A DNA stretch of 64,000 nt from Chloroflexota bacterium (GTDB lineage: Bacteria > Chloroflexota > Chloroflexia > QHBQ01): the NCBI GenBank assembly GCA_025355955.1, contig JANXYP010000346.1:3945-67944 (forward strand), in the 5' to 3' direction. Each line of letters begins with the position of its first letter. Positions within the stretch are counted from its first letter, which is position 1. Both the position numbers and the translations under genes were made by a program. Positions 5,112 to 42,440 of the stretch are shown one piece after another. A model generated the notes under the pieces. It saw nothing but the letters and a program-made list of their open reading frames with translations, had not been told where the DNA came from and made no database searches.

Positions 5112-5220
5112 TTACCTGTCTCTCCCCTATTCCGCTATGCCAATTCTACCCATGTAATTATACAGGCAACCGCCGTGTCGCTTCAAGATTGTTGATATAC
5201 GGTATCACAAACGACGATGG

Positions 5221-5320
5221 GCGTGCGTCACGTTCTTGCATACCCAACCAGGGCGAACAACGGTTCGCCCCTGCTGAACCCTTGCTCCGCAAGAACGTGA
5301 CGCGCACCCAACCACGGCAC
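5221..5320. repeat. Nested-palindrome element of about 99 bp (inverted copy of the 36153-36350 units), MITE-like
   Basis: Outer arms GCGTCACGTTCTTGC / GCAAGAACGTGACGC (15 bp, perfect) flank the inner REP hairpin GGGCGAACAACGGTTCGCCC. It aligns by eye over its whole length to the reverse complement of the 36.2-kb units. Confidence 0.75.
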
Positions 5321-10628: not shown

Positions 10629-12791
10629 CTAAGGCCCAGCCTGATACTTCTGCTGGTATTGGAAGGTGCCTAGCTGGCTGAGTTCTACCTCGTAGGGCGT
10701 GCCAGCGTTTTCGGGGTGCAGCTCGAACACCGCCCGCTCGAAGTATTGCACCGTATAGGTCTTACCGTCGAGGGCAGACACCTCCTGGAACTCATCGCTG
10801 ATCGGATAGCCCTGCTGCGTCAACCCACCATGGCTCACCCAGTAGGCGCGGAACTTGCCGCCCACCGTATGGCCGGTAAGCTGGAAGTAGAGCGGGTTAT
10901 CGGTGCTGACCGTCTGGTTGGGCGCACCGTCGGGATATTTGGCGTGGTAGCGGAAGGTGCCTAGCTGGCTGAGTTCCACTTCGTAGGGCGTACCAGCGTT
11001 TTCGGGGTGCAACTCGAACTCGGCCCGCTCGAAGTATTGCACCGTGTAGGTCTTGCCATCCAGCAGGCTGACCTCCTGGAACTCGTCGGTGATGGGGTAG
11101 CCTTGCTGCGCCAATCCGCCGTGGCTCTCCCAGTAAGCGCGGAACTTGCCGCCGATGGTCTTGCCAGTCACGTCAAACTTATAGGGATTGGCGGTGCTGG
11201 CGGTCTGCGGCGGGGGGGTGGTCGCCGGGGTAGCTACTGGCGTGGCGGTCACGGCAGGCGTTCCTGATCCCCCTCCCCCGCCGGGGGGAGGGTTAGGGAG
11301 GGGGGCGCTGCGCGTGCCGCGAATGGTATAGACATCCTCGCGCTGATTGCGGGTATCGGTCCAGACTATCCATACCGCATTACCCGCGGCGGAGATGCCC
11401 ATGTAATCGCCTGCCGCGTTGCCCGCGTCGGCGGCGATGCCGATGTTGTAGTCGGAAGCAGCGGTGCTGAGGCGGGTATCCGGCTGCCAGGTCTTGCCAC
11501 CGTCGCTGCTGGAGGTATAGTAGAGGTTGAGCAGCAAGTTGTTGGGGTCGTCGCGCTTGTCCATCCAGGCCACGTGAATCGTGCCGTCGGGCGCGACCGC
11601 AATGGTAGGCTCCACCTGGTCTATGCGACGGCCAGTCGGGTCGTCGTTGAGCCGCACGGGGCTGCTCCAGGTGTCGCCGCTATCGGCGCTACGGCTGTAG
11701 TAAATGTCGTAACCGTTAGTGGCATCGTTGCGGGCATCCGGCCACACCATATAGACGTTGCCATTGTGACGGTCCACCGCCACCGCCTGCATCGTGATGG
11801 TGCGCCAGTTCTCCGCGCTGTTACCCCTGGGGCAGCCAGTGCCGCAGTTCACCTCGGCAACGTCAGCGATCGGCCTCTCCGCCGACCAACTAACCCCGCC
11901 ATTGGTGGATTTCACCTCGGTGATGGCGGTGGTGCCATCGCCATACATCGTCACCAGCACATTGCCGTTGGGCAGCACCACCGGGATGCTTACCAGGGTC
12001 TCGTTATTACCAAGCTGCACAGGAGTTGACCAGGTTGCGCCGCCATTGGTGGAATATGCGCCGAAGTAGCGGACCACATACTCATTGCTCCAGGTTACAT
12101 ATAGGCGGTTGTAGTAGGGGCTGGCAGGGTTGGTGTCAATCGCCATCCAATCCTTGTCGCTGCTGCCCTTGCCGCCGCGCCAGGCAGCCACTACCTTGCT
12201 CCAGGTTGCGCCGCCGTCGCTGCTGCGGGTGACGTATGTCCCCTCATCGGGGCCACCGTAGGCTAGCAGCGAGACGTAGGCCACGCCGTCCGCGCCGAAA
12301 ACTACTACGGGGTCGCTTTCATCGGCCACCTTGAGGTCGCGCACGCCGGGGGCCAACTGGTTAGTCCAGGTTTGCCCGCCGTCGAGGGTTGCGCCCAGGT
12401 AGACCTGCTTTTTGCCGTCGCGCCAATCCTTGAACGCGACCACTGCGTTCATGTCGTTGCGCGGGTTGACCGCGATCTCCGGCTCGTGGTGGGCGCAGTT
12501 GGTGTTGCTGGCGTTGCAGGTCTCGGCATCGGTGTTGGCCTTCTGGTTCGGTCCCCACACAATCGGCCCGCTCGGAATAGATGGTGGGGTTGGGGTAGGG
12601 CCGCCAATAGCGGGCGTTGTGGTAGGCGTGGCAGCGGGCGGGCCGGGCGGAGATGTGGGGGTGCGGGTAGGCAATCCGCGATATAGGCCGCCCGCTGGCT
12701 GCGGCGCGGTAGACGCGGCCTGGCTGATGTTGCCCGCGACAAACAGGGTCAACGCGAAGAACACGAACAAGAGGGTTGACAGTTTACGCAT
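10629..12791 (-). CDS. Secreted BNR/Asp-box (sialidase-like) beta-propeller protein with two C-terminal LGFP-like repeats
   Basis: Signal peptide, then Asp-box repeats SSDGGATWS, STNGGATWS, STNGGVSWS, SADSGDTWS and SSDGGKTWQ. A Pro/Thr linker follows, then two copies of GGKFRAYW.SHGGL.QQGYPI.DEFQEVS.LDGKTYTVQYFERA.FELHPEN. Confidence 0.8.
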   Translation of the reverse strand: MRKLSTLLFVFFALTLFVAGNISQAASTAPQPAGGLYRGLPTRTPTSPPGPPAATPTTTPAIGGPTPTPPSIPSGPIVWGPNQKANTDAETCNASNTNCAHHEPEIAVNPRNDMNAVVAFKDWRDGKKQVYLGATLDGGQTWTNQLAPGVRDLKVADESDPVVVFGADGVAYVSLLAYGGPDEGTYVTRSSDGGATWSKVVAAWRGGKGSSDKDWMAIDTNPASPYYNRLYVTWSNEYVVRYFGAYSTNGGATWSTPVQLGNNETLVSIPVVLPNGNVLVTMYGDGTTAITEVKSTNGGVSWSAERPIADVAEVNCGTGCPRGNSAENWRTITMQAVAVDRHNGNVYMVWPDARNDATNGYDIYYSRSADSGDTWSSPVRLNDDPTGRRIDQVEPTIAVAPDGTIHVAWMDKRDDPNNLLLNLYYTSSSDGGKTWQPDTRLSTAASDYNIGIAADAGNAAGDYMGISAAGNAVWIVWTDTRNQREDVYTIRGTRSAPLPNPPPGGGGGSGTPAVTATPVATPATTPPPQTASTANPYKFDVTGKTIGGKFRAYWESHGGLAQQGYPITDEFQEVSLLDGKTYTVQYFERAEFELHPENAGTPYEVELSQLGTFRYHAKYPDGAPNQTVSTDNPLYFQLTGHTVGGKFRAYWVSHGGLTQQGYPISDEFQEVSALDGKTYTVQYFERAVFELHPENAGTPYEVELSQLGTFQYQQKYQAGP

Positions 12792-12919: not shown

Positions 12920-15900
12920 TTATGGTGCAATCGGGTACTTCTGCTGGTACTGGAAGGTACCTAGTTGGCTGAGTTCCACCTCGTATGCAGTACCCGCGTT
13001 TTCGGGATGTAGCTCGAACACCGCCCGCTCGAAGTATTGCACCGTGTAGGTCTTGCCGTCCAGTGGGCTGACCTCTTGGAACTCGTCGGAGATGGGGTAG
13101 CCTTGCTGCGCCAGCCCGCCGTGGCTCTCCCAGTAGGCGCGGAACTTGCCGCCGATAGTATGTCCCGTCTGCGGGAAGGGGTAGGGATGATCGGTACTGG
13201 CAGTCTGACCCGTTGCGCCGTTGGGGTATTTCTGCTTGTAACGGAAGGTGCCAAGCTGACTGAGCAGCACATCGTTAGGTGCGGCGTTTTCGGGGTGCAA
13301 CTCCATCACTGCCCGCTCGAAGTATTGCACGGTGTAGGTCTTGCCGTCGAGGGCGGACACCTCCTGAAACTCATTGCTGATCGGGTAGCCCTGCTGCGCC
13401 AACCCACCGTGGTTCTCCCAATAAGCGCGGAACTTGCCGCCAATAGTCTTGCCAGTCTGGGGGAAGAGGTAGGGATGGTCGGTGCTGGCGGTCTGCGTCG
13501 GGGCAGGAACGGGTGTGGCGGTGGGTAGCGGCGTGCTTGTTGCCGCAGGGGTGGGAGTTGCGTCCTCGCAAGAGACGGTAGCCGCCTCCACCGAGGTGAG
13601 CAAACTGCCACGTGCACCGCCACCGATGGCAAAGATGGTATTGCCCACGCTTGCCCCTGCTGGGATCATACGGTACTGCGCCATGTTCGGCCCGTTGCTC
13701 CACGTGTTGCTAGTCGAGTCGTACACGTAGCTCTGGTTTTGCTCCGCTGCGCTATTGCCGTAGATGCCACCGAAGACATAGAGGTGGTTACCGACCACCG
13801 CACTGCCCGGGTAGTCAATCGCGCGGGGTAGGTCGGCGCGGGCAGTCCAGGTATCCGCGGCAATGTCGTAGTCATAGGTAGAGGTGGTAAAGCTCATCGA
13901 ACCCAGGTCGAAGCCACCGGCGCTGTAAAGATGGCCGTTGATTACGCCGTAGCCCATACCGCTGACTTTGGCGGGGCTGGTAGCGCGGCTGGCCCAGGTG
14001 TTGGCAAGGGGGTCGTACACCCAGGTCTGATCGGTGACTGAAGGGGTAACCAGGCTGGTGAGGCCGCCAACCAGGTAGATCTTGCCGTTCCAGTAACCCG
14101 CCGCCATGAACGCATGGGCCAGCGGCATGGGTGCGCCGCTGCTCCACGAGTTGCTGGCGAGGTCATAGATGCGCGTGTCGGCGAAGCTGCTGCTGTTAGT
14201 CGTGAGCGTGCCTTTTACGCCGCCGAAGACGTAGAGCTTCTTGTTGATTGGCGAGTAGACGGCGTTGCCAGCCAGAAACGCGCTGGGCGCATGGGCGAGG
14301 CTAGTCCAGGTGTTAGCAGTGGGGTCATAGCGTAGTAGCTGGTTGCTCTCGTTCAGTCCTGACAGGGTAAACGTCCCGCCTGCCACGTAGACGTAGGTGC
14401 CGTCGCTGGCCGCCGCGCCGCTCATCGAGCCGGGCAGCGGAGCAACAGTTTGCCAGTTCCCCAGTGGCCCATTGCAGGGGGCAGTTTGGGCGGTGGCCCT
14501 GGTAGCTAGCCCACTAACGCTGCCAATCATCAGGGCAACGATAGCCGCGGTGGAGGCAAGCCTAACCAGTACGCCGCTCAGGTGCGGCATCGACATGGAG
14601 GTGGTTGGATTCTGATTCTGCATCTTTACTCTCTCTTTCAGGCCCGCAATGCGGGCGCTATAGGTCAATATCAGCAATAAAGGCGTGGTCGCCGGGGTAG
14701 GAGTGCCAGCCGAAGGCGGCGCAGGCGGTGCAGCCTGACATGAGACAGCGGCAATCTCAGCCGAGGCTAGCAGGCTGTCACTGCGGCCCTCGACTGCCAC
14801 GATGCTGTTGCCGACACTCGCGCCGCCGGGCAGCATCCACGCTTGCGCCATGTCCGACCCGCTGCTCCAGCGATCGCCGGTGGGGTCGTAAACGTAGGTG
14901 TGAGGCTGCATTAGGCTGCGATTATCAATGCCGCCGAAGACATACAGATGGTTGCCCACCACGGCGCTGCCAGCATAGTTGATCGCGGTGGGTAGGCTAG
15001 CGCGGGTCGTCCAGCGATCGGCGGCGATGTCGAAATCATAAGTGGCATTGGTAAACCCGCCAGTGGTGGGGTCGAAGCCGCCCACTACATAGAGGTGACC
15101 GTTGATCACGCCGTAGCTGGAGCCGCTCGCCCGCACCGGCAGCGCGGCGCGGTTGGCCCAGGTGTTGGCGAGGGGGTCATATTCCCAGGTTTGGGTCATG
15201 GTCGAAGGATTAGCCAGGCTGGCAAGGCCAGCAACGAGGTAAATACGGCCGTTCCAGTAGCCAGCGGCCATCAGCAGGCGGGTATCAGACATCGGTGCGC
15301 CGCTGCTCCAGGTGTTGGTGGCGGGGTTATAGATGCGGGTGTCAGAGAACGGATTGCTGGCGGCAGCAGTGGGCCCGTGTGCGCCGCCGAAGACGTAGAG
15401 TTTCTTGTTGATTGGCGAGTAGACGGCAGTGGCGGCGGCAAACGATGCAGGCGCGGGGGCGAGGGTTGTCCACTTGTTGGCAGCAAGGTCATAGCGCAGT
15501 AGTTGATTGCTCTCTTTAAGCCCTGACAAAGTGAAATTTCCGCCTGCCACATAGACGTAGGTGCCATCGCTTGCGGTAGCCCCACCAGTTGCCGCGCCGG
15601 GGAGCGAGGCAGCATTGTGCCATGACCCAGGCGGCCCATTGCAGGGGGTGGGTTGAGCGGTTGGTGCGGCAGTTGGCATCAAAGTGGGCGTTGGCGTAGG
15701 TTGCGCGCCAGGGTGAAGTTGCTGCCTCCTGATCAGGTCGGAGGCGACCGCGATGCTGCCGAGCAGCAACCCGATGATGATAAGGGCGGTGACAAACCGA
15801 CCGAACAGGCTGCTCAGGCGCGGCAGCGGCGAGGAGGTGGCGGCGTTTTGCGGTGCTGCGTTTTGGCGACCTGCCCAGCGGGGGCTGGCGCTAGTGCGGG

Positions 15901-16105
15901 CAAACCTCGCCTCTGCCTCGAGCTGCTGGCGCAGCCGTGTGCGGAAGGCGGGGGTGGGCTTCTGCCCATGAATCTCCCGATGCAAGCGCCTGGCAATTAT
16001 AGCCTCACCAGGATCGAGGCCAGCGGGCGGCCTGGCGTTTTCGTCCTGAGCTAGCACAGCGCAGTATTGCTCGAGCAGGGTGGCTTGTTGCTCTGGGTCG
16101 GTCAT
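12920..16105 (-). CDS. Anti-sigma factor (by position), TM helix and Kelch propeller, read through in frame into a second signal-peptide, Kelch propeller and 2x LGFP-like unit
   Basis: One 1061-aa ORF. Its start overlaps the stop of the upstream ECF sigma gene (TGATG). It has a TM helix (FVTALIIIGLLLGSIAVA) and Kelch-type blades (LYVFGG, IYLVAG, LYVVGGF). An internal ATG at 14623 is preceded by GAAAGAGAGAG and a GC hairpin, and it opens a second signal-peptide-like segment with a paralogous Kelch propeller. This may really be two genes (14624..16105 and 12920..14623). Confidence 0.6.
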   Translation of the reverse strand: MTDPEQQATLLEQYCAVLAQDENARPPAGLDPGEAIIARRLHREIHGQKPTPAFRTRLRQQLEAEARFARTSASPRWAGRQNAAPQNAATSSPLPRLSSLFGRFVTALIIIGLLLGSIAVASDLIRRQQLHPGAQPTPTPTLMPTAAPTAQPTPCNGPPGSWHNAASLPGAATGGATASDGTYVYVAGGNFTLSGLKESNQLLRYDLAANKWTTLAPAPASFAAATAVYSPINKKLYVFGGAHGPTAAASNPFSDTRIYNPATNTWSSGAPMSDTRLLMAAGYWNGRIYLVAGLASLANPSTMTQTWEYDPLANTWANRAALPVRASGSSYGVINGHLYVVGGFDPTTGGFTNATYDFDIAADRWTTRASLPTAINYAGSAVVGNHLYVFGGIDNRSLMQPHTYVYDPTGDRWSSGSDMAQAWMLPGGASVGNSIVAVEGRSDSLLASAEIAAVSCQAAPPAPPSAGTPTPATTPLLLILTYSARIAGLKERVKMQNQNPTTSMSMPHLSGVLVRLASTAAIVALMIGSVSGLATRATAQTAPCNGPLGNWQTVAPLPGSMSGAAASDGTYVYVAGGTFTLSGLNESNQLLRYDPTANTWTSLAHAPSAFLAGNAVYSPINKKLYVFGGVKGTLTTNSSSFADTRIYDLASNSWSSGAPMPLAHAFMAAGYWNGKIYLVGGLTSLVTPSVTDQTWVYDPLANTWASRATSPAKVSGMGYGVINGHLYSAGGFDLGSMSFTTSTYDYDIAADTWTARADLPRAIDYPGSAVVGNHLYVFGGIYGNSAAEQNQSYVYDSTSNTWSNGPNMAQYRMIPAGASVGNTIFAIGGGARGSLLTSVEAATVSCEDATPTPAATSTPLPTATPVPAPTQTASTDHPYLFPQTGKTIGGKFRAYWENHGGLAQQGYPISNEFQEVSALDGKTYTVQYFERAVMELHPENAAPNDVLLSQLGTFRYKQKYPNGATGQTASTDHPYPFPQTGHTIGGKFRAYWESHGGLAQQGYPISDEFQEVSPLDGKTYTVQYFERAVFELHPENAGTAYEVELSQLGTFQYQQKYPIAP

Positions 16106-29105: not shown

Positions 29106-30038
29106 ATGAAGATGGGATTGAGAGCGCCGATGTTCACCTACCCCGAAGGCGCAGGGGTGATTGGTGAGCGATTTGGCCGCATGGCGGAGGAGGCCGAGGA
29201 GGCCGGGTTCTACAGCTTCTGGGTGATGGATCACTTCTTCCAGATCGGCAACTTTGGGCCGAAGGAGCGGGAGATGCTGGAGGGCTACAGCGCGCTCACC
29301 TACGCCGCTGCGCTGACTAGCAAGGTGAAGCTCGGCACGCTGGTCACGGGGGTGACTTACCGCTACCCCGGCATCCTGGTCAAGACGGTGACGACGCTGG
29401 ATGTGCTTAGTCGCGGGCGGGCATACTTTGGGGTGGGCGCAGCCTGGAACGAGCTGGAACACAAGGCGCTGGATGTGCCGTTCCCGCCGCTGAAGCAGCG
29501 CTTCGAGATATTGGAAGATACCTTGCAGATGGCGCTACAGATGTGGAGTGGCGAGGCCAAGCCATTCGACGGCAAGCATCTGCACCTGGCCGAGACGCTC
29601 AACTCGCCCAACGCCATCCAGCGACCGCACCCGCCGATCATGATCGGCGGCGAGGGCGAGGAGAAGACGTTCCGCCTAATCGCCAAATACGCCGATGCCT
29701 GCAACATCTTCGCCTTCTCTGGCCCTGAACACGTCCAGCAGAAGTATGACGTATTGCGCCAGCGCTGTGAGGAGATTGGCCGCCCCTACACGGAGATTGA
29801 GAAGACTACCGTGCTGGCAATGCTGGTGACCAAGGATGGCCGCGTGCCAGATGGATTGGAGACCAAAGTTCCGGCGATAACCGCCGCGCAGGCGATCGAG
29901 GTATTGCACCGACTTGCCGAGATCGGCACCGATCACGCCATCGTCAATCTGCCCAACTATACCGCACCGGACGCGCTGGAGATCTGGGCCAGCGAGATTG
30001 TGCCAGCAGTGACTAAGCTGGCCGTAGCCGGCCGCTAA
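29106..30038 (+). CDS. Luciferase-like monooxygenase (LLM) class oxidoreductase, probably F420/flavin dependent
   Basis: 310 aa. N-terminal EEAGFYSFWVMDHFFQ and overall LLM-class layout. AAGGAG RBS. Confidence 0.75.
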   Translation: MKMGLRAPMFTYPEGAGVIGERFGRMAEEAEEAGFYSFWVMDHFFQIGNFGPKEREMLEGYSALTYAAALTSKVKLGTLVTGVTYRYPGILVKTVTTLDVLSRGRAYFGVGAAWNELEHKALDVPFPPLKQRFEILEDTLQMALQMWSGEAKPFDGKHLHLAETLNSPNAIQRPHPPIMIGGEGEEKTFRLIAKYADACNIFAFSGPEHVQQKYDVLRQRCEEIGRPYTEIEKTTVLAMLVTKDGRVPDGLETKVPAITAAQAIEVLHRLAEIGTDHAIVNLPNYTAPDALEIWASEIVPAVTKLAVAGR

Positions 30039-31708: not shown

Positions 31709-32923
31709 ATGACAACCCCACACCGACAGCTGACCAGGGCGATGGCGATCGCATTGCTCGCCGTGCTGCTCACTTATGGTGGGCAGGCGTTTGCCGCACC
31801 GACCACGTTGGCAGCGCAAGCCGCAGCTAGCTGCAGCAGCGGCAGCATCACCCCCACCGTAACCGAAGGCCCATTCTATAAGGCCGGTTCACCGCAGCGC
31901 GCCTCGCTGCTTACGCCGGGCATCAGCGGCACCCCGGTCACTATCACTGGCTATGTGTACGACAAGAACTGCCAGCCCATCGCTAATGCCTGGCTGGACT
32001 TCTGGCAAGCCAGCGCCAGCGGCGTGTACGACAACGCTGGCTATACACTACGCGGCCACCAGTACACCGACGCGGCTGGTCGCTTCATGTTGCAAACCGT
32101 CGAGCCGGGCGAATACCCTGGTCGCACCGAGCATATTCACGTCAAGGTGCAAGCGCCCAGCGGCCCCATCCTTACCACTCAGCTTTTCTTCCCCGGAGTA
32201 GTTCACAATAGCAGCGACTCGATCTACGACCCCGCCCTGCTGATGAACGTACAGACCGCAGCGGACGGCAGCAAGACTGCCACCTTCAACTTCGTCCTCG
32301 ATGTCACCACCACGCCGACTGCCCAGACCACGCCGACAACGACCGCTAGCTACACCTTTCCGCAGACTGGCTTTACCGTGTCGGGGGCTTTCTGGACTGC
32401 CTGGCAGAGCGGGCGCTCATTCGCCGATAGCCTGTACATCAACGGGCTGCCCATCAGCGCGGCGCGTAATGAAGTGTCGCCTACTGATGGCAAGACTTAC
32501 CTGACCCAGTGGTTCGAGCGGGCGCGGCTCGAGTTGCACCCGCAGAACGTTGCGCCCAATAATGTGCTGCTCGGGTTGCTAGGCACGGTGGCGGCTCAGG
32601 GCAAGCAGAACCAGGCCGCCTTCCAGCAGGTGAGCAATCCCGGCGGCAGCGTCGCCTGGTTTAGCCAGACCGGACACACGGTGGGCAATAGCAGCGTGGG
32701 CGGGCAAGCCATCGCCACCGCGTGGACGCGGCTGGGCGGACTGGCGCAGTTCGGCTACCCCATCTCCCAGCCGTTCACCGAGGTGAGCAAGGATGATGGC
32801 AAAAGCTATCTGGTGCAATACTTCGAGCGCCAGCGCTTCGAGTACCACCCTGAGAACGCAGGTACATCCTACGCCGTGTTGTTGGGCCGCCTGGGAGCCG
32901 AGCAGATGACGAAAACGCCGTAA
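31709..32923 (+). CDS. Secreted intradiol-dioxygenase-like domain fused to two LGFP-like repeats
   Basis: Signal peptide. TEGPFY and GRTEHIHVKV are the hallmark blocks of the intradiol ring-cleavage dioxygenase C-terminal fold. Two W..GG....GYPIS...dGk.Y..Q.FER.R.E.HPEN repeats follow. Confidence 0.7.
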   Translation: MTTPHRQLTRAMAIALLAVLLTYGGQAFAAPTTLAAQAAASCSSGSITPTVTEGPFYKAGSPQRASLLTPGISGTPVTITGYVYDKNCQPIANAWLDFWQASASGVYDNAGYTLRGHQYTDAAGRFMLQTVEPGEYPGRTEHIHVKVQAPSGPILTTQLFFPGVVHNSSDSIYDPALLMNVQTAADGSKTATFNFVLDVTTTPTAQTTPTTTASYTFPQTGFTVSGAFWTAWQSGRSFADSLYINGLPISAARNEVSPTDGKTYLTQWFERARLELHPQNVAPNNVLLGLLGTVAAQGKQNQAAFQQVSNPGGSVAWFSQTGHTVGNSSVGGQAIATAWTRLGGLAQFGYPISQPFTEVSKDDGKSYLVQYFERQRFEYHPENAGTSYAVLLGRLGAEQMTKTP

Positions 32924-34963: not shown

Positions 34964-36073
34964 TCACGCTTTCACCCGCTCGGCGGTTGCCTCTGCTGGT
35001 TTGGCATCGGCAAGCAGGGGCGGGGCAGCGCCGCCGCTGCCGCTCTCGCCGTCGTCGATCTCACCCACTCTACCGAACTTCAGGTGGAAGAGCAGCATGA
35101 ACACCAGCCCCACCAACACACCGAACCAGAGGGTGGCAAGGCGAATCAGCAGCGTTGCAGCAATGGCAAGGCCACTGGTTATCGCAGGGCTGACGAACGG
35201 GGGGGCGACCAGCACTAGCAGCAACCCGGCGATGCCTGCATCAGCAACCCCCAACCCGCCCGGCAGTCCGCTGGCCGCGCCCGCAATGCTGGTTGCCCCC
35301 AGGATGAAGGTGGTAATGAACAGCATATTCCATGATGGGGCAAAGCCGAGACCGATCATCACCAGAAAGAAGGCGAAGCACTCGCCCGCCCAGGAGATGA
35401 AACCGAGGCTGGAGGCAATCAGCATGGCGCGCGGACTGAGCAGCAGGTTGGAGCTGACGAACAGGCTACGTAGCAGGTGCATCCGCTTGGCGACGAAGGG
35501 GAAACGCTCCAGCCAGGTAAACAGCCGCTCGGTAAGGGTACGATTACGCACCACCACGATGATGGCGATGTAGGCAAACACTACCAGTGCCAGGATCGGC
35601 CAGAAGCCGTTGGCCGCCGAGGTTGCGCCGCCAAAGAGTATGAGCAGACTGAAGCCCAGCACCGCCAGCAGAATCATGGCGATGCCGTCGCTCATTCGCT
35701 CGGCGATCACAATGGGGGACGAAGTGGTGATCGGTGTGCCATTCACCTGGCGCAGTAGATACGCCTTGAGCAACTCGCCTACCTTACCAGGGGTCATCAC
35801 CATGGTGAAGCCGCTGTAAAACACCAGCCCGCTATCAGTCTTGTTGATGGGGCGGTCGCTGACCAGGTGAACGTAGTAATCCCACTTGAAGAAGCGTAGC
35901 ACGTAGTTGAACAGGGTGAGGCCAAGGATAGCGGGAATCAACGCCCAGTTGAAGGTACTGAGCGATTGACCCAGCTTGCCCAGGTCAGTAAATAGCCCCA
36001 GCGCCGCAATCACCATCACGCCGAAGATAACCGACAGGATAATTTTGCCGCGCACCCGATCGAGGAATGACAA
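34964..36073 (-). CDS. Flippase-like / LPG-synthase-TM (UPF0104) family membrane protein
   Basis: 369 aa with about 8 TM helices and a general UPF0104 layout. TTG start. Family assignment is moderate. Confidence 0.6.
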   Translation of the reverse strand: MSFLDRVRGKIILSVIFGVMVIAALGLFTDLGKLGQSLSTFNWALIPAILGLTLFNYVLRFFKWDYYVHLVSDRPINKTDSGLVFYSGFTMVMTPGKVGELLKAYLLRQVNGTPITTSSPIVIAERMSDGIAMILLAVLGFSLLILFGGATSAANGFWPILALVVFAYIAIIVVVRNRTLTERLFTWLERFPFVAKRMHLLRSLFVSSNLLLSPRAMLIASSLGFISWAGECFAFFLVMIGLGFAPSWNMLFITTFILGATSIAGAASGLPGGLGVADAGIAGLLLVLVAPPFVSPAITSGLAIAATLLIRLATLWFGVLVGLVFMLLFHLKFGRVGEIDDGESGSGGAAPPLLADAKPAEATAERVKA

Positions 36074-36152
36074 AACTTTACCACCTTTCCAACCCTGGCC
36101 CTATATCACGCCCGCCTAGTTTACCAGATGGGCGGGCTTTCTGCAAGGTTGA

Positions 36153-36350
36153 CTCCGGTGGAGGGTTTGCGTCATGTTCTTGCAGAGCAAGCGTTCAGTA
36201 GGGGCGAACTGTTGTTCGCCCTGGTTGGGTGTGCCAGAGCGTGACGCACACCTCCGGTGGAGGGTATGCGTCATGTTCTTGCAGCGCAAGCGTTCAGTAG
36301 GGGCGAACCGTTGTTCGCCCTGGTTGGGTGTGCCAGAGCGTGACGCGCAC
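36153..36350. repeat. Two tandem 99-bp nested-palindrome (MITE-like) units
   Basis: The units at 36153-36251 and 36252-36350 differ at only a few positions. Each has GCGTCATGTTCTTGCAG...GTAGGGGCGAAC.GTTGTTCGCCCT...CCAGAGCGTGACGC. Confidence 0.85.
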
Positions 36351-36440
36351 CCATCGCTGGAAGTTGTTGTTCCGTTTGTCCGTTGAACAGCCAGTTGGCT
36401 GGCTCCGTTGTTCCCAAAATAGCCCAAAAGTCCCAGCCGA

Positions 36441-36476
36441 AAAAGCGAAGCAACTCTCCACCAAGCGCGTATAAGC
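36441..36476 (+). promoter_or_regulatory. ECF-type bipartite promoter motif, copy 1 (AAAAGCGAAG-N17-CGTATAAGC)
   Basis: GCGAAG at 36445-36450, a 17-nt spacer and CGTATAAGC at 36468-36476, 63 nt upstream of ATG 36539. It is embedded in a block of about 60 nt conserved with copy 2. Confidence 0.5.
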
Positions 36477-36538
36477 ACCCAGTAAGCAGTTACCCAACCT
36501 CAATCGCAGTTTATCACCATCAGCTAAGGAGGATTACA

Positions 36539-37978
36539 ATGTCCAACCAGGTCAAGTATTACATCCGCGTCGCCATGGTCACCTTCATGGTAATTGCAAT
36601 GGCGATCTTCTACCTGCCGCGTGGCAGCGCGGCCCAGAGCAGTGCGGCCCAGAGCGGCACCGCCATGAACGGCTACAGCGTGGCTCCCGACTTCCTGGCC
36701 TACTGGAACGCCCATGGCGGTCTGGCGGTCAACGGCTACCCAATTACCAGCGAGGCGGTCGAGGCTAGCGTCACCGACGGCAAGAGCTACGCTACGCAGT
36801 GGTTCGAGCGGGCGCGTTATGAGCGCCACCCTGAGAACCCCACTGCTACTGGCACTCTGCTCGGTCTGCTGGGCAGCGAATATGTGAAAGGGCGCACCTT
36901 TGCCCCGGCCGCCAGCCAGGTGAGCAATGCCAGTGTAGCCTACTTCGCGCCGACCGGGCATAGCCTGGCGAACAGTCCCGCGCCGTTCAAGGATTACTGG
37001 CAGCAGCACGGTGGCCTCGCCCAGTTCGGCTACCCCCTCAGCGAACAGGTGCAGGAAGTCAGCACCGACGGGCATACCTACACGGTGCAATACTTCGAGC
37101 GTCAGCGCTTCGAGTACCACCCTGAGCAGAGCAACCCCCAATACCACGTGCTGCTCGGCCTGTTGGGCGTGCAATTGCATAATAGTCCCGACCACGAGCG
37201 CCACTGCGAACCAATCGCCAACAGTAACCCGCTGCCAGAGCCGACTGGCACCGTCCAGGTTACACATGAGCCGCGCCCCACCTGCACCCCGCAGCCAACC
37301 GAGAGTCCCGAGGCCACCCACCAGGCGGAGCCGACCGAGACCCCCGGCTGCGATAGCAGCAACAATGAGTGCCACACCCCCGAACCGACCCACCAGGCCG
37401 AGCCAACCGAAACCCCCGGCTGTGATAGCAGCAACAACGAGTGCCACACCCCCGAACCGACCCACCAGGCCGAGCCAACCGAAACCCCCGGCTGTGATAG
37501 CAGCAACAACGAGTGCCACACTCCCGAACCAACCCATCACCCCGAGCCGACCGAAACCCCCGGCTGCGACAGCAGCAACAATGAGTGCCACACCCCCGAA
37601 CCGACCCACCAGGCGGAGCCGACCGAAACCCCTGGCTGCGACAGCGGCAACAATGAGTGCCACACCCCCATGCCAACTCCCATCGCGACGACCACTCATG
37701 AGCCAGAGCCGACCCACACTCCCGATTGCGGCTTCCACTGCAATACCCCAGCGCCGACCGAAACCCACCAGCCAGAGCCAACCGAGACCCCTGAGGCCAC
37801 CCATCAGCCGGAACCGACCCGCACTCCCGATTGTGGCTTCCACTGCCATACTCCCCAGCCGACCGAAACCCACCAGGCGGAGCCAACCGAGACCCCCGAG
37901 GCTACCCATCAGCCGGAGCCGACCCACACTCCCGATTGTGGCTTCCACTGCGAACCGACGGTCACGCCCCGGCCCTGA
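36539..37978 (+). CDS. Secreted protein with 2x LGFP-like repeats followed by His/Cys/Pro/Thr tandem repeats (5x 24 aa, then about 2.7x 35 aa)
   Basis: AAGGAGG RBS and ATG 36539, with a signal anchor MSNQVKYYIRVAMV. Five units of HQAEPTETPGCDSSNNECHTPEPT are followed by units of HQPEPT.TPDCGFHC.TP.PTETHQ.EPTETPEAT. The track start 36383 is rejected. A terminator-like hairpin follows. Confidence 0.8.
   Translation: MSNQVKYYIRVAMVTFMVIAMAIFYLPRGSAAQSSAAQSGTAMNGYSVAPDFLAYWNAHGGLAVNGYPITSEAVEASVTDGKSYATQWFERARYERHPENPTATGTLLGLLGSEYVKGRTFAPAASQVSNASVAYFAPTGHSLANSPAPFKDYWQQHGGLAQFGYPLSEQVQEVSTDGHTYTVQYFERQRFEYHPEQSNPQYHVLLGLLGVQLHNSPDHERHCEPIANSNPLPEPTGTVQVTHEPRPTCTPQPTESPEATHQAEPTETPGCDSSNNECHTPEPTHQAEPTETPGCDSSNNECHTPEPTHQAEPTETPGCDSSNNECHTPEPTHHPEPTETPGCDSSNNECHTPEPTHQAEPTETPGCDSGNNECHTPMPTPIATTTHEPEPTHTPDCGFHCNTPAPTETHQPEPTETPEATHQPEPTRTPDCGFHCHTPQPTETHQAEPTETPEATHQPEPTHTPDCGFHCEPTVTPRP
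37319..37678 (+). repeat. Coding tandem repeat, 5 x 72 bp (24-aa unit HQAEPTETPGCDSSNNECHTPEPT)
   Basis: Unit starts at 37319, 37391, 37463, 37535 and 37607. The units differ by a handful of mostly synonymous or conservative changes. Confidence 0.9.
37697..37975 (+). repeat. Coding tandem repeat, about 2.7 x 105 bp (35-aa unit H.PEPT.TPDCGFHC.TP.PTETHQ.EPTETPEAT)
   Basis: Units start at about 37697, 37802 and 37907 (truncated by the stop). Confidence 0.85.
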
Positions 37979-38014
37979 GCAGCGAAACTGAAGATCGCCA
38001 ATCGCATCCCTCCG

Positions 38015-38049
38015 CGCCCTGGCAGCAATGTCAGGGCGGGTTATTTTGG
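38015..38049 (+). terminator. Terminator-like hairpin after the 36539..37978 gene
   Basis: The stem CGCCCTG/CAGGGCG has a 10-nt loop and the tail GGTTATTTT. Confidence 0.45.
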
Positions 38050-38093
38050 CACTATTATTTGCCGCTGATAAATAGCCCAAAAGTCCCAGCCAA

Positions 38094-38129
38094 AAAACCG
38101 AAGCAACCCAGCCCCACTTACGTATTAGC
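38094..38129 (+). promoter_or_regulatory. ECF-type bipartite promoter motif, copy 2 (AAAACCGAAG-N17-CGTATTAGC)
   Basis: CCGAAG at 38098-38103, a 17-nt spacer and CGTATTAGC at 38121-38129, upstream of ATG 38241. Confidence 0.5.
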
Positions 38130-38240
38130 TCTCGTTAAGCAATTCCCCAATTCTGGTGCCAACCTGGGCCGACCGCGACGGCAGGTTGCCCAGGCAAATC
38201 TAACCACAGCATTATCAGCATCAACAGGAGGAGAATAACA

Positions 38241-38894
38241 ATGCCCAGTCAGATAAAGTTTTACATCCGCGTCGCGCTGGTCGCCGCCTTGGTGATCGGC
38301 TTTAGCATCCTATTCATGCCGCAGGGCAATGCAGCCCAGATTGTTTCGCCCGATGGTATCACCAATCCGCAGCCCAACCCCGACCACCACTGCCGTTCAG
38401 GGGTCAATCTGAATCCGCTGCCGCAGCCAACTGGCACGGCCCAGGCCACGCCCATGCCGACCTGTACCCCGGAGCCGACCCGCACACCAGTTCATTGTGA
38501 ACACCACTGTGGCACGCCAATGCCGACCCCCATGGCAACCTCCACCGAGCAGCATTGCTGGCACGAGTGCGGCACCCCCGAGCCAACCCACCAACCCGAG
38601 CCGACCCGCACTCCCGGTTGCGACAGCAGCAACCATGAGTGCCAGACTCCGGAGCCAACCACCACCGAGCAGCATTGCTGGCACGATTGTGGCACGCCAA
38701 TGCCAACCCCCATTGCGACGACCACCGAGCAGCACTGCTGGCACGATTGTGGCACCCCGCAGCCAACCCACACCCCCGAACCGACCCGCACCGCAGAGCC
38801 AACTCACAATCCGCAGCCAACTACCACTGAGCAGCATTGCTGGCACGATTGCGGCACCGCCACCCCAACCCCCACCCGCGTATCGAACTCCTAA
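38241..38894 (+). CDS. Secreted His/Cys/Pro/Thr repeat protein, paralogous N-terminus to 36539..37978
   Basis: AGGAGG RBS and signal anchor MPSQIKFYIRVALV. Repeated (T)EQHCWH(D/E)CGTP (x4), plus HCEHHCGTP and GCDSSNHECQTPEPT. A good terminator follows. Confidence 0.8.
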   Translation: MPSQIKFYIRVALVAALVIGFSILFMPQGNAAQIVSPDGITNPQPNPDHHCRSGVNLNPLPQPTGTAQATPMPTCTPEPTRTPVHCEHHCGTPMPTPMATSTEQHCWHECGTPEPTHQPEPTRTPGCDSSNHECQTPEPTTTEQHCWHDCGTPMPTPIATTTEQHCWHDCGTPQPTHTPEPTRTAEPTHNPQPTTTEQHCWHDCGTATPTPTRVSNS

Positions 38895-38928
38895 TCACCC
38901 CATCTGATGCTTACGAACCCGATCAAAT

Positions 38929-38963
38929 GCGCCTTGGCAACGATGCCGAGGCGCGTCGTTTTT
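38929..38963 (+). terminator. Rho-independent terminator after the 38241..38894 gene
   Basis: An 11-bp stem GCGCCTTGGCA/TGCCGAGGCGC (one G-U pair), loop ACGA, then GTCGTTTTT. Confidence 0.65.
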
Positions 38964-39007
38964 GGTACTATGCTATGTTACTGATGCCATATGCGGTTCT
39001 GCCAAAT

Positions 39008-39041
39008 AAAAGCGAAGTAAAAACATAAATCTACGTATTAG
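39008..39041 (+). promoter_or_regulatory. ECF-type bipartite promoter motif, copy 3, upstream of the ECF sigma gene (AAAAGCGAAG-N16-CGTATTAG)
   Basis: GCGAAG at 39012-39017, a 16-nt spacer and CGTATTAG at 39034-39041. A possible sigma-70-type TTAGAT-17-TATAAT (39038-39066) overlaps it. Confidence 0.5.
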
Positions 39042-39110
39042 ATTATGTATGAAACTATGCTATAATTTAATAACCAGGTTGGCAGACCTGTCCTGTAAGG
39101 ATTGCTGAAG

Positions 39111-39710
39111 ATGATTTTGCAGCGGAGCGCAACTCTTGTGGTGAGCAGCACTACTGACCAACAATTCGACTTGGTCTTCAACAGATATGGTGGGTTTGTC
39201 TACACAATTGCCCAGGCGCTGCTGAAGAACCGGCAGGACGCAGAAGACGCTGTGCAGGAAGTGTTCATCCGGGTGTATCGTTCGATGGACCATTATGACG
39301 AAATCAAGGGCAGCATGGAGGGTTGGCTACGGGCCATCTTGCTCAACTACTGCCGCGACAAATGGCGCAAACGCGGTTTCCTCAGCATCCCTATCAGCCT
39401 GCTCGCACATAACCAGGATGATGGGGACGGCAACTGGGAGGAAGCGCTGGGTAACGCGGGTGGCATCAGCAAGCAGGAGGCGGGGCCGGATATGACCTTG
39501 CTGCGCCGCGAGAGTGAGGACGAGCTGTGGACGGCAGTGAATAGCCTCAGCGAAAAGCTGCGCCGCGTGGTGGTGCTGCGCTACTATATGGATCTCACCG
39601 ACAACGAAGTGGCCGAGACGCTCGGCCTGCCTAAAGGCACGGTCTACTCGCGGTTGCACGCCGCCCACCAGCGCTTGCAGGCGCTGTTGAACCCTGGTGA
39701 AGAACGATGA
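39111..39710 (+). CDS. ECF sigma factor
   Basis: Region 2 (FDLVFNRYGGFVYTIAQALLKNRQDAEDAVQEVFIRVY) and region 4 (RRVVVLRYYMDLTDNEVAETLGLPKGTVYSRLHAAHQRL). I prefer ATG 39111, 9 nt after AAGGA; the track start is TTG 39102. The stop overlaps the next start (ATGA). Confidence 0.88.
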   Translation: MILQRSATLVVSSTTDQQFDLVFNRYGGFVYTIAQALLKNRQDAEDAVQEVFIRVYRSMDHYDEIKGSMEGWLRAILLNYCRDKWRKRGFLSIPISLLAHNQDDGDGNWEEALGNAGGISKQEAGPDMTLLRRESEDELWTAVNSLSEKLRRVVVLRYYMDLTDNEVAETLGLPKGTVYSRLHAAHQRLQALLNPGEER

Positions 39711-41263
39711 ATCACGAACAAACTCAACGTGCAATTAACGGCTACCTGCGCGGCGAACTGGGAGCAGACGAGCAACGCGGCTTCCTTGCCCATGTCCGCG
39801 CTTGCCCACGCTGCAGCAGCGAACTGGCGATTGCCAGCCGCCTACAACGCGAACTGCCGCAGGCTGCGCCCTATCGCGCCAGCATCGGCACACCACTGCC
39901 TGCCGCCCTGGCGGCCAGGGTGCGGGCTAGCGTCGCCGGTCAGCAGGGGGGCAAGCCGCTCGGCTGGCTCGATTGGCTCTTCCCTGGGGCGCAACCCAGC
40001 CTGCTGCGTGGGGTGGTCAACGTGCTGGGCGTGTTCCTGCTGCTGTTCGCGTTCGCCGTAGGCGCGGCTGCGCTACGCAACGCCTTCCAGCCCGGCCCAT
40101 CCAGGCCAGGGTACGCCGCCAACTTTACCTACTCGGTCAAGCAGAACCTCACCTACGTGTTTACCGATACCACCATCACTACCGACACGCTGACCTACAG
40201 TTGGAACTTCGGCGATGGCGGCAATAGCGCCATGCACAATCCCAGCCACACCTACGGCGTGAGCGGGGTTTACAACGTGAGCATGGCGGTGAGCGGGCCG
40301 CGCGGAACTGGCAACAAGTCTCTGGGGGTGTCGGTTGGCCCCAGCGTTGCCGTCACCGTCAGCCCCACGCCGACGGCATTGCCCAGCGCCACCGCGTTCC
40401 TACCCGGCCCGTTTACGACGACCCCGGCGCTGCTGCCGTCGATGGATACTGCGACTCCACCAGCAACCGATACCCCGTCTCTACCCGGCCCGCCCATCCC
40501 GACGCGGCCCAACCTCACCCCGCTGCCGTTCGTGCCGCCCAGCGCGACCCCGCTGCTGCCCACCCCACCGACCGTGCTGCCACAGCAACCCAGCCCCACC
40601 CCGGCGCAATTGCCCAACAATGGACCAACCGGCACGGCCTTGCCGCAGTCGAGCGCTACCCCGCTGCCCATATCCAGCGCCACTGCAGTGCCGCAGCCAA
40701 CCAGCACGCCATTCGCTGCGCCAAGTGATACCCCGCTGCCCGCGCCGAGCAATACCCCACTGACCGCGCCGACCATCACGCCGACCGCCATATCGAGTAG
40801 CACACCGACCGCCATTCCGACCAGTGAGCCGAGCAGCATACCGAGCAGTACGCCACGTCCAGAGCCAAGCAATACCCCTCAGCCGGAGCCGACCAGCGCG
40901 CCGAGCGGTACGCCACTACCCGTGTCGAGCAATACGCCCGCGCCAAGCGATACGCCAGAACCGCAGCCGAGCGATACGCCAGAACCGCAGCCGAGCAGCA
41001 CGCCGCTGCCGAGCAACACGCCCGCGCCAAGCGATACGCCGCTACCGCAACCAAGCAGCACGCCGCTGCCGAACCACACGCCACATCCAACCGAGACATC
41101 AACGCCCACCCACGAGCCGCAGCCGACGCACACACCAATGCCGCCCACTGAAACGCCCACCCCGACCGAAACGCCCAGGGCCGAGCCTACCGAGACACCA
41201 GGGCCGCACCCAAGCTGCACCCCGCATACGGACAGCGAACCAGACTATGGCTGCAGCGGTTAA
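39707..41263 (+). CDS. ZAS-type (zf-HC2) anti-sigma factor with a TM helix, an extracytoplasmic PKD domain and a long Pro/Thr/Ser tail ending in Cys residues
   Basis: HVRACPRC is H-x3-C-x2-C. TM helix GVVNVLGVFLLLFAFAVGAAAL. PKD-like block YSWNFGDGGNSAMHNPSHTYGVSGVYNVSMAV. The tail contains THEPQPTHTP and AEPTETPG, both shared with the 36539 protein, and ends SCTPHTDSEPDYGCSG. Confidence 0.85.
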   Translation: MNHEQTQRAINGYLRGELGADEQRGFLAHVRACPRCSSELAIASRLQRELPQAAPYRASIGTPLPAALAARVRASVAGQQGGKPLGWLDWLFPGAQPSLLRGVVNVLGVFLLLFAFAVGAAALRNAFQPGPSRPGYAANFTYSVKQNLTYVFTDTTITTDTLTYSWNFGDGGNSAMHNPSHTYGVSGVYNVSMAVSGPRGTGNKSLGVSVGPSVAVTVSPTPTALPSATAFLPGPFTTTPALLPSMDTATPPATDTPSLPGPPIPTRPNLTPLPFVPPSATPLLPTPPTVLPQQPSPTPAQLPNNGPTGTALPQSSATPLPISSATAVPQPTSTPFAAPSDTPLPAPSNTPLTAPTITPTAISSSTPTAIPTSEPSSIPSSTPRPEPSNTPQPEPTSAPSGTPLPVSSNTPAPSDTPEPQPSDTPEPQPSSTPLPSNTPAPSDTPLPQPSSTPLPNHTPHPTETSTPTHEPQPTHTPMPPTETPTPTETPRAEPTETPGPHPSCTPHTDSEPDYGCSG

Positions 41264-41311
41264 TTGGTAAAACACAAGCCGGGCAATTGTTGCCCGGCTT
41301 TGCTGATCCAC

Positions 41312-42440
41312 CTACGCTTCTTCCTCGTCCGGCTTCACCGCTTCGTCGGCCTTCCAGTGCAAGTAGGTGTTGATGAAAGGGTCGAGGTCGCCGTCCATCA
41401 CCCCGAAGATGTCACTAGTCGAGTAGCCGCTACGATAGTCGTCCACCTTCTGATAAGGCATAAAGACGTAGGAGCGGATCTGGCTACCCCAACCCGCTTG
41501 CACGTGTTCACCACGCAACTTGGCCTGCTCCTCATCCTTCTTCTGCCGCTCCAACTCCCACAGCTTGGCCCGCATGATCTTCATCGCAGTCTCGCGGTTC
41601 TGGATCTGGCTACGCTCGTTCTGGCAGGTGACCACGATGCCGGTGGGGATATGGGTGAGGCGGATGGCGGTCGAGGTCTTGTTCACGTTCTGGCCGCCCG
41701 CGCCGGTAGCGCGATACATGTCCATCTTGATGTCGTCGTCGTTGATCTCTATCTCGATCTTGTCGTCAAGCTCCGGCAGGATTTCGACGAGGGCGAACGA
41801 GGTCTGGCGGCGGTGCTGGCTATCGTAAGGGGATATGCGTACCATACGATGCTGGCCCGCCTCGCCGTGCATATAGCCGTAGGCGTTGCGCCCGCGAATG
41901 GTCATCGTGCAACTCTTGATGCCCGCCTCGTCGCCTTCGGATACGTAATCAAGCTCCGCATCGTACTTGTGCTGCTCGGCCCAGCGGGTGTACATCCGCA
42001 TCAGCATTTGCGCCCAGGCCATCGCCTCGGTGCCGCCCTCGCGGGCGTAGATGCTCATAATCACGTTGCCCGCGTCGTACTCGCCACCCAACAGCAGTTC
42101 CATCTCATCCTTGACGAGTTGTGCGGCAATGCTGTCATGCTCGGTCTGTAGCTGGGCCAGCATATCATCTTCACCCTCGCTCAGTTCGGCCAGTTCGCGC
42201 AGCTCGGCCACCCGGCTGCCCAGCGTAGCCCAGCGCTCAATCTGCTCACGCAGTTCCGCCGCCCGCTGCGTCACCTGGCGGGCGGTCGGTTGGTCGGTCC
42301 AGAAATCGGATAGCATTGCCTGCTCGTCTAGCTCGATCAGTTCCTTCTCTTTGCGGGGCAAGTCAAAGACGGGCCTGCATCGTATTGATGCGTTCGATGA
42401 GCGCATCGAACCCGCTAGTTAGTTCTTCCGTGGTTGGCAT
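41312..42440 (-). CDS. prfB: Peptide chain release factor 2, with programmed +1 frameshift
   Basis: ATG 42440 opens a 25-codon frame (MPTTEELTSGFDALIERINTMQARL) that ends at CTT TGA C (42368-42362). A +1 shift joins it to the 41312..42406 frame (DLPRKEKELIELDE...). The GGQ motif (GAGGQNVNKTSTA) and RISPYDS (an SPF-type tripeptide variant) are present. GGAGGAG RBS. Confidence 0.92.

Follow-up and report, generated by a model that had tools for sequence, protein, structure and literature searches.

In this work we analysed a stretch of 64,000 nucleotides from a Chloroflexota bacterium (assembly GCA_025355955.1, contig JANXYP010000346.1), referred to here as the window. Its central region contains four co-oriented genes, encoding two repeat proteins (T1 and T2), a sigma factor of the extracytoplasmic function (ECF) type and an anti-sigma factor. 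The reading that we favour, with moderate confidence when taken as a whole, is that of a positively autoregulated envelope module, in which the ECF sigma factor and a zinc-binding anti-sigma factor (ZAS) control two exported effectors composed of Cys loops and His repeats that bind metal or thiol-reactive species. We consider the architectural part of this explanation very probable. The biochemical role, i.e. binding of metal or thiol-reactive species in the wall zone, is put forward tentatively.

The bipartite motif AAAASCGAAG-N16/17-CGTATWAG has exactly three matches in the 64 kb, all on the + (coding) strand, located upstream of T1, of T2 and of the sigma gene (Table 1). None of 100 shuffled sequences had any match, with an expected number of 0. 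The original prediction, made from the letters of the window, was correct in the number and location of these copies, but its coordinates were about 4 nt off. The motif follows the pattern of ECF promoters, a CGT(A) -10 element with a spacer of 16-17 nt, as in TGAAAC-N16-CGTA for SigW. GCAAC was tried as the -35 element and rejected, its spacing to CGT being only 13 nt and its sequence not being conserved in the sigma promoters.

For a single upstream region of 200 nt, the probability that the 10-nt bipartite core occurs by chance is approximately 4e-4. When the motif is relaxed to CGAAG-N16/17-CGTAT, one extra match is found in the window (29687-29712, - strand, N16), with 0.2 expected. It lies antisense inside a luciferase-like monooxygenase gene, has no A-tract, and probably arose by chance.

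The promoters of T1 and T2 (P_T1 and P_T2) share an 81-bp block with 79% identity, in which 36417-36497 matches only 38070-38150 within the window, so these two copies of the motif are duplicates and not independent. The copy of the sigma gene (P_sig) has only the bipartite motif in common with them, its spacer being unrelated. Promoters of the T1/T2 type also share an extra upstream block, AAATAGCCYRAAAGT, and a leader segment, AGCARTTMCC. Together, AAATAGCCYRAAAGT and the GAAAAAG tract form phased A-tracts resembling an UP element. Homology with the related locus L070 starts exactly at this upstream block of P_T1 (36417).

Related loci (loci are designated here by L numbers) were recovered from public assemblies, both through a scan for the motif and through homologues of the sigma factor and T1. 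The core CGAAG-N16/17-CGTAT, preceded by an A-tract, is found in 11 promoter instances from six genomes, namely the window and five further related metagenomic genomes. All of them are on the coding strand, 68-120 nt upstream of start codons, and their spacers and flanks are almost fully diverged. The sites are equivalent to those of the window, upstream of T1, T2 and the sigma gene. The whole arrangement is kept in L018, a Chloroflexia metagenome-assembled genome (MAG) with 87% sigma identity, which contains a partial T1, T2, the sigma and anti-sigma genes and prfB. In L070 both T1 and T2 are present, and L067, L076, L071 and L075 contain the sigma gene and its upstream region. Nine distinct orthologous or paralogous loci were examined for the ECF motif upstream of the sigma gene, and six of them have it. 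The order T-like gene, sigma, anti-sigma is kept down to about 61% sigma identity, and even the most distant members (61-62%) have a T-like gene as the immediate upstream neighbour of the sigma gene.

The motif is not part of a dispersed repeat, either in the window or in 596 Gb of reference genomes. In the latter, drawn from GTDB representatives other than the source genome, the exact motif has 64 matches, among which L018 is the sole relative; the remaining ones are scattered singletons and the terminus of an unrelated mobile element. Eight matches in two deltaproteobacterial MAGs were tried as a regulon and rejected, as they correspond to the conserved terminus of a repeated mobile element (...AAAACCGAAGACCGAAAACCGAAAACCGTATTAG). 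These matches are L003, L009, L012, L021, L038 and L042 (VGSO01), together with L041 and L062 (VGSW01); the two MAGs contain many copies of the terminus, ending in ...CCGAAAACCGAAGACCGAAAACCGAAAACCGTATWAG, whose match to the ECF motif pattern is coincidental. A 99-bp hairpin repeat upstream of T1 was also rejected as a carrier of the motif: it stops at 36351, with 90 nt left to the motif, and the motif is missing from its other copies.

ECF sigma factors are described as needing near-consensus promoters and as often driving their own gene (PMC7776599, PMC7826278). Given this, the conservation of the motif with diverged spacers, the absence of a dispersed element and the ECF-pattern -10 and spacer, we accept the three sites as putative promoters of a positively autoregulated ECF module, presumably read by the sigma factor encoded beside them.

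As for the sigma factor itself, it matches PF04542 (2.9e-18) and PF08281 (1.4e-11), with no match to region 1 or 3, and scores 98 bits with TIGR02937 (cutoff 42.9). With regions 2 and 4 only and a length of about 200 aa, its sequence identifies it as an ECF (group 4) sigma-70 factor, as originally predicted. Among NCBIfam models, those of SigE, SigW and generic ECF factors are the most similar to it. No named ECF equivalog or subfamily was reached, all such NCBIfam models being far below their cutoffs (e.g. SigW with 91 vs 209 bits, SigE-fam_strep with 101.6 vs 141.55 bits). The linker between regions 2 and 4 is unusually long. An identical protein exists in public data (P0001), and closely related ones are annotated from MAGs of Chloroflexia and Candidatus Chloroheliales. 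Neither Chloroflexi nor PKD is named in the main text of the paper by Casas-Pastor on ECF classification.

The sigma/anti-sigma operon appears to have a second promoter, overlooked in the original prediction, with the extended -10 element TGCTATAAT. A TATAAT sequence is present about 17 nt downstream of the ECF -10 in every orthologous sigma locus, in most of them as TGnTATAAT. Its conservation in all these loci, including those without the ECF motif, points to a basal housekeeping-type (sigma-A-type) promoter besides the inducible one. It is followed by a conserved leader hairpin (CCAGGTTGGCAGACCTG). One MAG (GCA_038239995.1) has two paralogous sigma/anti-sigma modules, L071 and L077, with 71% and 62% sigma identity to the window; L071 has the ECF motif upstream of its sigma gene and L077 has the TATAAT promoter only.

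The start of the anti-sigma gene overlaps the sigma stop by 4 nt (ATGA). The encoded protein matches zf-HC2 (PF13490) with 30.4 bits (cutoff 22.2) and contains a PKD domain (E-value 4.6e-12), in agreement with the H-x3-C-x2-C motif and the PKD domain that had been read from the sequence. Seven anti-sigma orthologs have in common four zinc ligands (H or C at position 3, then H29, C33 and C36), the transmembrane (TM) helix, the PKD domain and a highly variable Pro/Thr stalk. In the window this stalk is rich in Pro, Thr and Ser and has about 300 aa. Judging by the ligands and by the adjacent co-oriented gene, the protein is most likely a ZAS-type (zf-HC2) class-I anti-sigma factor.

The C-terminus of every complete anti-sigma ortholog is an xCTP-x9-11-GC loop with abundant Asp, Glu and His. 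Cys-pair units of the effector type are found in the stalks of several orthologs: DCGFHCG in L018, VCGDACN and DCGHECQ in L067, and GCGADC in L071. The tail of the window protein resembles the linkers of T1 with an E-value of 6e-08, part of this score being driven by composition; the relation of this tail to the target repeats had been noticed earlier.

T1 and T2 are paralogous, as previously proposed; their repeat regions align with an E-value of 1e-30 and their signal peptides with one of 4e-10. T2 corresponds to T1 minus a folded N-terminal domain. Both start with a single hydrophobic segment followed by SAA|Q or NAA|Q, an AXA-like site by our reading of the sequence. The export signal shared by the two proteins is therefore more likely a cleavable Sec-type signal peptide than the signal anchor first suggested.

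In terms of repeats, T1 contains four copies of GCDSSNNECH and one of GCDSGNNECH in a 72-bp tandem array of 4.9 copies, and a 105-bp array contains its three DCGFHC[N/H/E] units. The arrays are homogenised in their DNA sequence, with 92% in the 72-bp one. T2 contains four HCWH[D/E]CG units, one HCEHHCG and one GCDSSNHECQ. The original inventory was the same, but it counted five GCDSSNNECH where only four are exact. T1 has 18 Cys and T2 has 14, every one of them in a pair. Common to both is a module, HHC-x23-25-PTCTP, followed by Pro/Thr/His/Glu linkers with Cys pairs every 16-31 residues.

Across the orthologs, the loops include CGFHC, CGYHC, CWHDC, CEHHC, CEHQC, CGDEC, CDGDEC, CDGNHEC and CDSSNNEC. 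The two Cys are constant and Asp, Glu or His is always present, with the remaining positions free. The number of copies also varies, with five C-x6-C units in T1 of the window and one in its ortholog P0015. The most distant T-like protein, from L077, is rich in His and Trp (PTWTHHP), with only 3 Cys and no C-x3-C unit. A single-sequence AlphaFold2 (AF2) model of T2 has a pLDDT of 41 overall, below 50 after residue 32, with no structure beyond the signal helix, which suggests a disordered Cys-pair/His repeat chain. Attachment of c-type haem (CXnCH) was considered and rejected, as the trailing His is not conserved (DCGFHC-N/H/E, HCWHDCG).

Two observations were made in the related loci. In the partial T1 of L018, one DCGYHC unit has TGA (positions 58-60) in place of its second Cys codon (DCGYH*QTP), with the frame open for 75 more codons. 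The site is about 60 nt from the contig end and within a repeat, which makes an assembly error or a recent nonsense mutation the most likely cause; a less likely one would be selenocysteine, as a Cys/Sec swap in a C-x3-C motif. In L070, a lipoprotein-like thioredoxin of the TlpA/ResA type (WCPPC; 92-676, - strand) divergently adjoins T1, and tblastn found no counterpart in the window. This neighbour could hint at extracytoplasmic thiol chemistry or be a coincidence.

The folded N-terminal part of T1 (aa 36-225) was also overlooked in the original prediction. It has two copies of a domain with the signature GGL..GYP...E....DG..Y.VQYFER.R.E.HPE, found in at least 1797 homologous proteins; those with source names are from Chloroflexia or Chloroflexota. 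The domain is fused to S8 peptidase, GH18, cupredoxin, CopC and other secreted modules, and is present in three other open reading frames (ORFs) of the window: 10629-12791(-), 12920-16105(-) and 31709-32923(+). T1 has no match in Pfam or NCBIfam at E <= 0.1, including the PF08310 (LGFP) model, and few of the at least 1797 homologues carry a precomputed PF08310 match. The AF2 model of the domain has a pLDDT of 93.5, with no Foldseek match in PDB at E <= 0.001 and no match to PDB sequences. Its signature is similar to LGFP repeats, hence it is probably a surface- or wall-attachment module. The tandem domain is in itself a candidate for an uncharacterised surface-attachment module.

As a family, T1 and T2 are very rare. 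No match to T2 was found in a word-indexed set of 5.8 billion proteins. An exhaustive phmmer search of 1.84 billion representative proteins returned only the T1 ortholog P0015 and two spurious low-complexity matches, and two metagenome scans with T-family alignments found nothing. Neither protein matches a Pfam or NCBIfam family, including metallothioneins and RiPP precursors (ribosomally synthesised and post-translationally modified peptides). No metallothionein match was found among PDB sequences or by the exhaustive phmmer search either, and T2 had no match of any kind to PDB sequences. The two proteins form a lineage-restricted orphan family of a very small clade.

For the gene neighbourhood, a set of 34 window proteins was compared with Pfam; it takes in the two flanks of the module, about 9 kb each, and most of the large ORFs in the 64 kb. 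No MNIO/DUF692, DUF2063, radical-SAM, YcaO, lanthipeptide or protease/transporter genes were found among them, nor in the syntenic loci. The original prediction was right in ranking precursor peptides second, as no RiPP enzymes are among the scanned ORFs. SLH-domain wall proteins are encoded near the module.

Both T1 and T2 have strong ribosome-binding sites (RBS). By layout they are monocistronic, each with its own promoter and its own terminator-like hairpin. A hairpin with T-run was found after both, as had been claimed, and also after the anti-sigma gene. The features of the locus are collected in Table 1.

Table 1. Features of the ECF module, with positions in the window; aa, residues of the encoded protein; TRF, Tandem Repeats Finder.
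Feature	Position	Strand	Details and basis
Upstream block of T1 promoter (AAATAGCCCAAAAGT...GAAAAAG; phased A-tracts, UP-element-like)	36417..36440	+	nearly invariant in five target promoters of three genomes
P_T1, putative ECF-type promoter, AAAAGCGAAG-N17-CGTATAAG	36441..36475	+	motif scan; orthologous copy in L070 has a diverged spacer
T1 gene	36539..37978	+	479 aa; strong RBS AAGGAGG; ortholog P0015
T1 predicted signal peptide	aa 1-33	+	hydrophobic segment and cleavage-like site
T1 tandem Chloroflexi surface-protein domain, two copies	aa 36-225 (36644-37213)	+	at least 1797 homologues; AF2 model
T1 repeat arrays	37316-37669 and 37692-37951	+	TRF; five C-x6-C and three C-x3-C units, Pro/Thr/His/Glu linkers
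Terminator-like hairpin and T-run 3' of T1	hairpin 38015-38038, with T-run to 38048	+	hairpin search
Upstream block and P_T2, putative ECF-type promoter, AAAACCGAAG-N17-CGTATTAG	38070..38128, motif 38094-38128	+	motif scan, alignment
T2 gene	38241..38894	+	217 aa; predicted signal peptide, HHC...PTCTP module, six Cys-pair units; orthologs in L018 and L070
Terminator-like hairpin and T-run 3' of T2	hairpin 38927-38956, with T-run to 38966	+	hairpin search
P_sig, putative autoregulatory ECF-type promoter, AAAAGCGAAG-N16-CGTATTAG	39008..39041	+	core kept in L018, L067, L076, L071 and L075; spacers unrelated
Candidate extended -10 element TGCTATAAT, second promoter of sigma/anti-sigma operon	39058..39066	+	sequence reading, ortholog comparison
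ECF sigma gene	39111..39710	+	199 aa; Pfam Sigma70_r2/r4 and TIGR02937
Anti-sigma gene	39707..41263	+	518 aa; zf-HC2, one TM helix, PKD, Pro/Thr/Ser stalk
Anti-sigma ZAS ligands H3, H29, C33, C36	39713-39814	+	zf-HC2 match and ortholog alignment
Anti-sigma TM helix	aa ~96-127 (39992-40087)	+	hydrophobicity reading
Anti-sigma PKD domain	aa 143-209 (40133-40333)	+	Pfam
Anti-sigma terminal SCTP-x9-GC loop	41216-41254	+	sequence and orthologs
Terminator hairpin between anti-sigma gene and convergent prfB	41276..41300	.	hairpin search

An Rfam scan of 35500-41500 gave no match. The hairpin repeat upstream of T1 is a dispersed intergenic element with the core AGGGGCGAACnGTTGTTCGCCCT, present as 10 cores in the 64 kb and in both orientations. 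Its unit of about 95-99 nt is in tandem at 36153-36351 and found again at 5215-5309; further cores are listed at 5250, 30074, 34623, 34910, 49146, 49202, 62371 and 62507. The unit has a strong fold (-48 kcal/mol, z -4.9), is similar to repetitive extragenic palindromes or miniature inverted-repeat transposable elements (REP/MITE-like), and has no Rfam match. The neighbouring prfB gene (release factor 2, RF2) has, at window 42440-42358 (- strand), a short first ORF (MPTTEELTSGFDALIERINTMQARL*) followed by CTT TGA C, the canonical site of programmed +1 frameshifting, a known feature.

The locus was compared with known systems. Its switch is similar to ECF/ZAS class-I systems such as SigW/RsiW of B. 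subtilis, RpoE/ChrR of R. sphaeroides and SigL/RslA of M. tuberculosis. Common to all are a two-domain sigma factor (regions 2 and 4), an overlapping co-transcribed anti-sigma gene whose product has H-x3-C-x2-C, a fourth ligand and a single TM helix, and a bipartite promoter, placed before both the own operon and adjacent targets, whose -10 is CGT(A) and whose spacer has 16-17 nt. The window differs from them in the lack of a specific equivalog model at cutoff, in the -35 element (CGAAG vs GAAC/AAAC), in the long linker between sigma regions 2 and 4, and in an ectodomain that consists of PKD and a Pro/Thr stalk, about 300 aa long, with a Cys loop at its end. The switch is textbook ECF/ZAS signalling and ordinary in itself; the unusual twist is that sensor and effectors share modules.

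The closest functional analogue is found in Caulobacter, where SigF/NrsF controls bufferins, which are Sec-exported Cys-containing RiPPs that buffer copper (PMC11626156). Both cases have an ECF/anti-sigma pair, a small regulon, Sec-exported Cys proteins and metal buffering, shown for bufferins and proposed here. On the other hand, bufferins are small and folded (DUF2282 or BUF_6/12Cys), with Cys converted to thiooxazoles by MNIO and DUF2063 enzymes of the same operon, whereas T1 and T2 are long disordered repeat chains with no family match and no such enzymes among the scanned ORFs.

In the case of bacterial metallothioneins (SmtA/BmtA) and Hpn, the likeness is the high content of Cys and His in short clustered motifs. 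All of these are small proteins of the cytoplasm, and in metallothioneins the fold forms around metal clusters, in contrast with T1 and T2, which carry export signals and have no sequence match to them. The Cys of T1 and T2 are in isolated pairs, with 12-31 residues of Pro/Thr linker between. Finally, the T1 domain has a signature like that of the LGFP-repeat (PF08310) wall-associated proteins of Actinobacteria, and few homologues are annotated as PF08310, but T1 itself has no Pfam or NCBIfam match and its model has no match in PDB.

A small envelope regulon under ECF/ZAS control, as originally predicted, is supported by the conservation of the motif, the kept gene order, the ZAS, TM and PKD parts of the anti-sigma factor and the export signals. 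In the mechanism that we propose, the housekeeping-type promoter would provide basal expression of the translationally coupled sigma/anti-sigma pair. The single-pass anti-sigma factor would use its N-terminal H/C-H-C-C zinc domain to retain the sigma factor at the membrane, and would expose outside the cell its PKD domain and its Pro/Thr stalk, ending in the conserved acidic/His-rich Cys-x11-12-Cys loop. An extracytoplasmic cue would inactivate the anti-sigma factor, most likely by regulated proteolysis, and the freed sigma factor would read the three near-identical promoters (aAaAnCGAAG-N16/17-CGTAT). Its own promoter would give positive feedback and the other two would drive monocistronic T1 and T2.

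Once exported through Sec, the largely disordered T1 and T2 would present their C-x3-C and C-x6-C loops, with the tandem folded domain of T1 as a probable attachment. Their most likely role may be that of a high-capacity extracellular binder or buffer of soft or borderline metals (Cu, Zn, Ni) or of thiol-reactive oxidants in the wall zone. Cys loops of one kind are present in both the sensor tail and the effectors, so that T1 and T2, once secreted, could titrate the cue that induces them, which would complete a loop of negative feedback. In a bolder version, which we regard as a speculation of low probability, the two proteins would be an unmodified, wall-tethered "extracellular metallothionein-like" sponge. 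An identical Cys/His loop, at the tip of the wall-spanning Pro/Thr stalk of the anti-sigma factor, would sense the same cue, and the effectors would titrate the signal by which they are induced, resulting in a self-calibrating metal/redox buffer without dedicated modifying enzymes or transporters.

Several points weigh against the autoregulated metal- or thiol-binding module. The loops vary widely between orthologs, some have no His (CGDEC, CGADC), and the L077 protein is poor in Cys, which argues against a precise metal site; the loops may instead act as disulfide staples. In the window scan, the module had no metal transporter, chaperone or thiol oxidoreductase beside it. The sigma genes of L068 (63% sigma identity), L073/74 (61%) and L077 (62%) lack the motif upstream, so autoregulation is not universal in the clade. 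In addition, the -35 element ends with GAAG, an atypical last base when compared to the usual GAAC, and another ECF sigma factor of the genome could be the reader of the motif. Wall binding by the T1 domain is proposed from its promiscuous fusion pattern, and its confident model has no analogue in PDB.

The strongest rival, although rather unlikely in our view, takes T1 and T2 as structural proteins of the envelope or sheath, extended and probably glycosylated Pro/Thr chains, stiffened or cross-linked through short disulfide loops and made when wall damage is sensed by the ECF system, in which His and Cys have no metal role. The even number and strict pairing of Cys would fit such proteins, as would the free variation of the loops in sequence and length between orthologs, the differing repeat copy numbers and the predicted disorder. 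The T1 domain is common to many secreted Chloroflexi enzymes, and SLH-domain wall proteins are nearby, which also agrees with this explanation. On the contrary, His, Asp or Glu is always in or beside the loops, and the linkers have regular His (PTHTP, THQAEPTETP; PTWTHHP in L077), which would be unexpected of a mere spacer. Extracellular disulfides may also fail to form if the host lives without oxygen; the relatives come from metagenome or MAG samples.

It is improbable that T1 and T2 are chiefly regulatory partners, i.e. secreted mimics of the anti-sigma tail that bind the PKD domain or the tail, or compete for ligand or protease, and so tune the switch. Such a logic would be comparable to that of accessory envelope proteins in other ECF systems. 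The order of the T-like, sigma and anti-sigma genes, conserved across the whole clade, speaks for it, and so do the xCTP module and Cys-pair units common to effectors and sensor tails. However, two paralogues with long, fast-expanding arrays and one attachment-like domain suit bulk effectors better than stoichiometric regulators.

We regard it as very unlikely that the two proteins are multi-core RiPP precursors, for instance of Cys-derived metallophores, with enzymes encoded elsewhere. Short Cys units are indeed repeated with similar linkers between them, and bufferins are an existing case of Sec-exported, Cys-modified RiPPs under ECF control (PMC11626156). Nevertheless, modifying enzymes are missing among the scanned window ORFs and from the syntenic loci, no precursor family is matched by T1 or T2, conservation of the core sequences between orthologs is lacking and T1 has a large folded domain.

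Finally, there is little chance that the shared motif is a relic of the T1/T2 promoter duplication or the site of another regulator: P_T1 and P_T2 are not independent, and the extra blocks AAATAGCCYRAAAGT and AGCARTTMCC suggest additional control, but the sigma-gene copy shares the bipartite motif only, the motif survives in six genomes with randomised spacers, and it has no dyad symmetry, a sigma-like 16/17-nt spacing, strand specificity and a CGT -10 typical of ECF promoters.

Under the favoured reading of an autoregulated ECF/ZAS module, the locus gives a comparatively validated promoter motif for an unclassified ECF lineage of Chloroflexia, and links an ECF switch with exported Cys-pair/His repeat proteins that form an orphan family. 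Furthermore, a sensor tail built from effector modules suggests a feedback design that can be tested. If the repeats only serve as disulfide-stapled spacers, this would be an ordinary lineage-specific envelope-stress regulon. If they bind metal, the module would parallel the bufferin metallophores under ECF control, but without enzymes.

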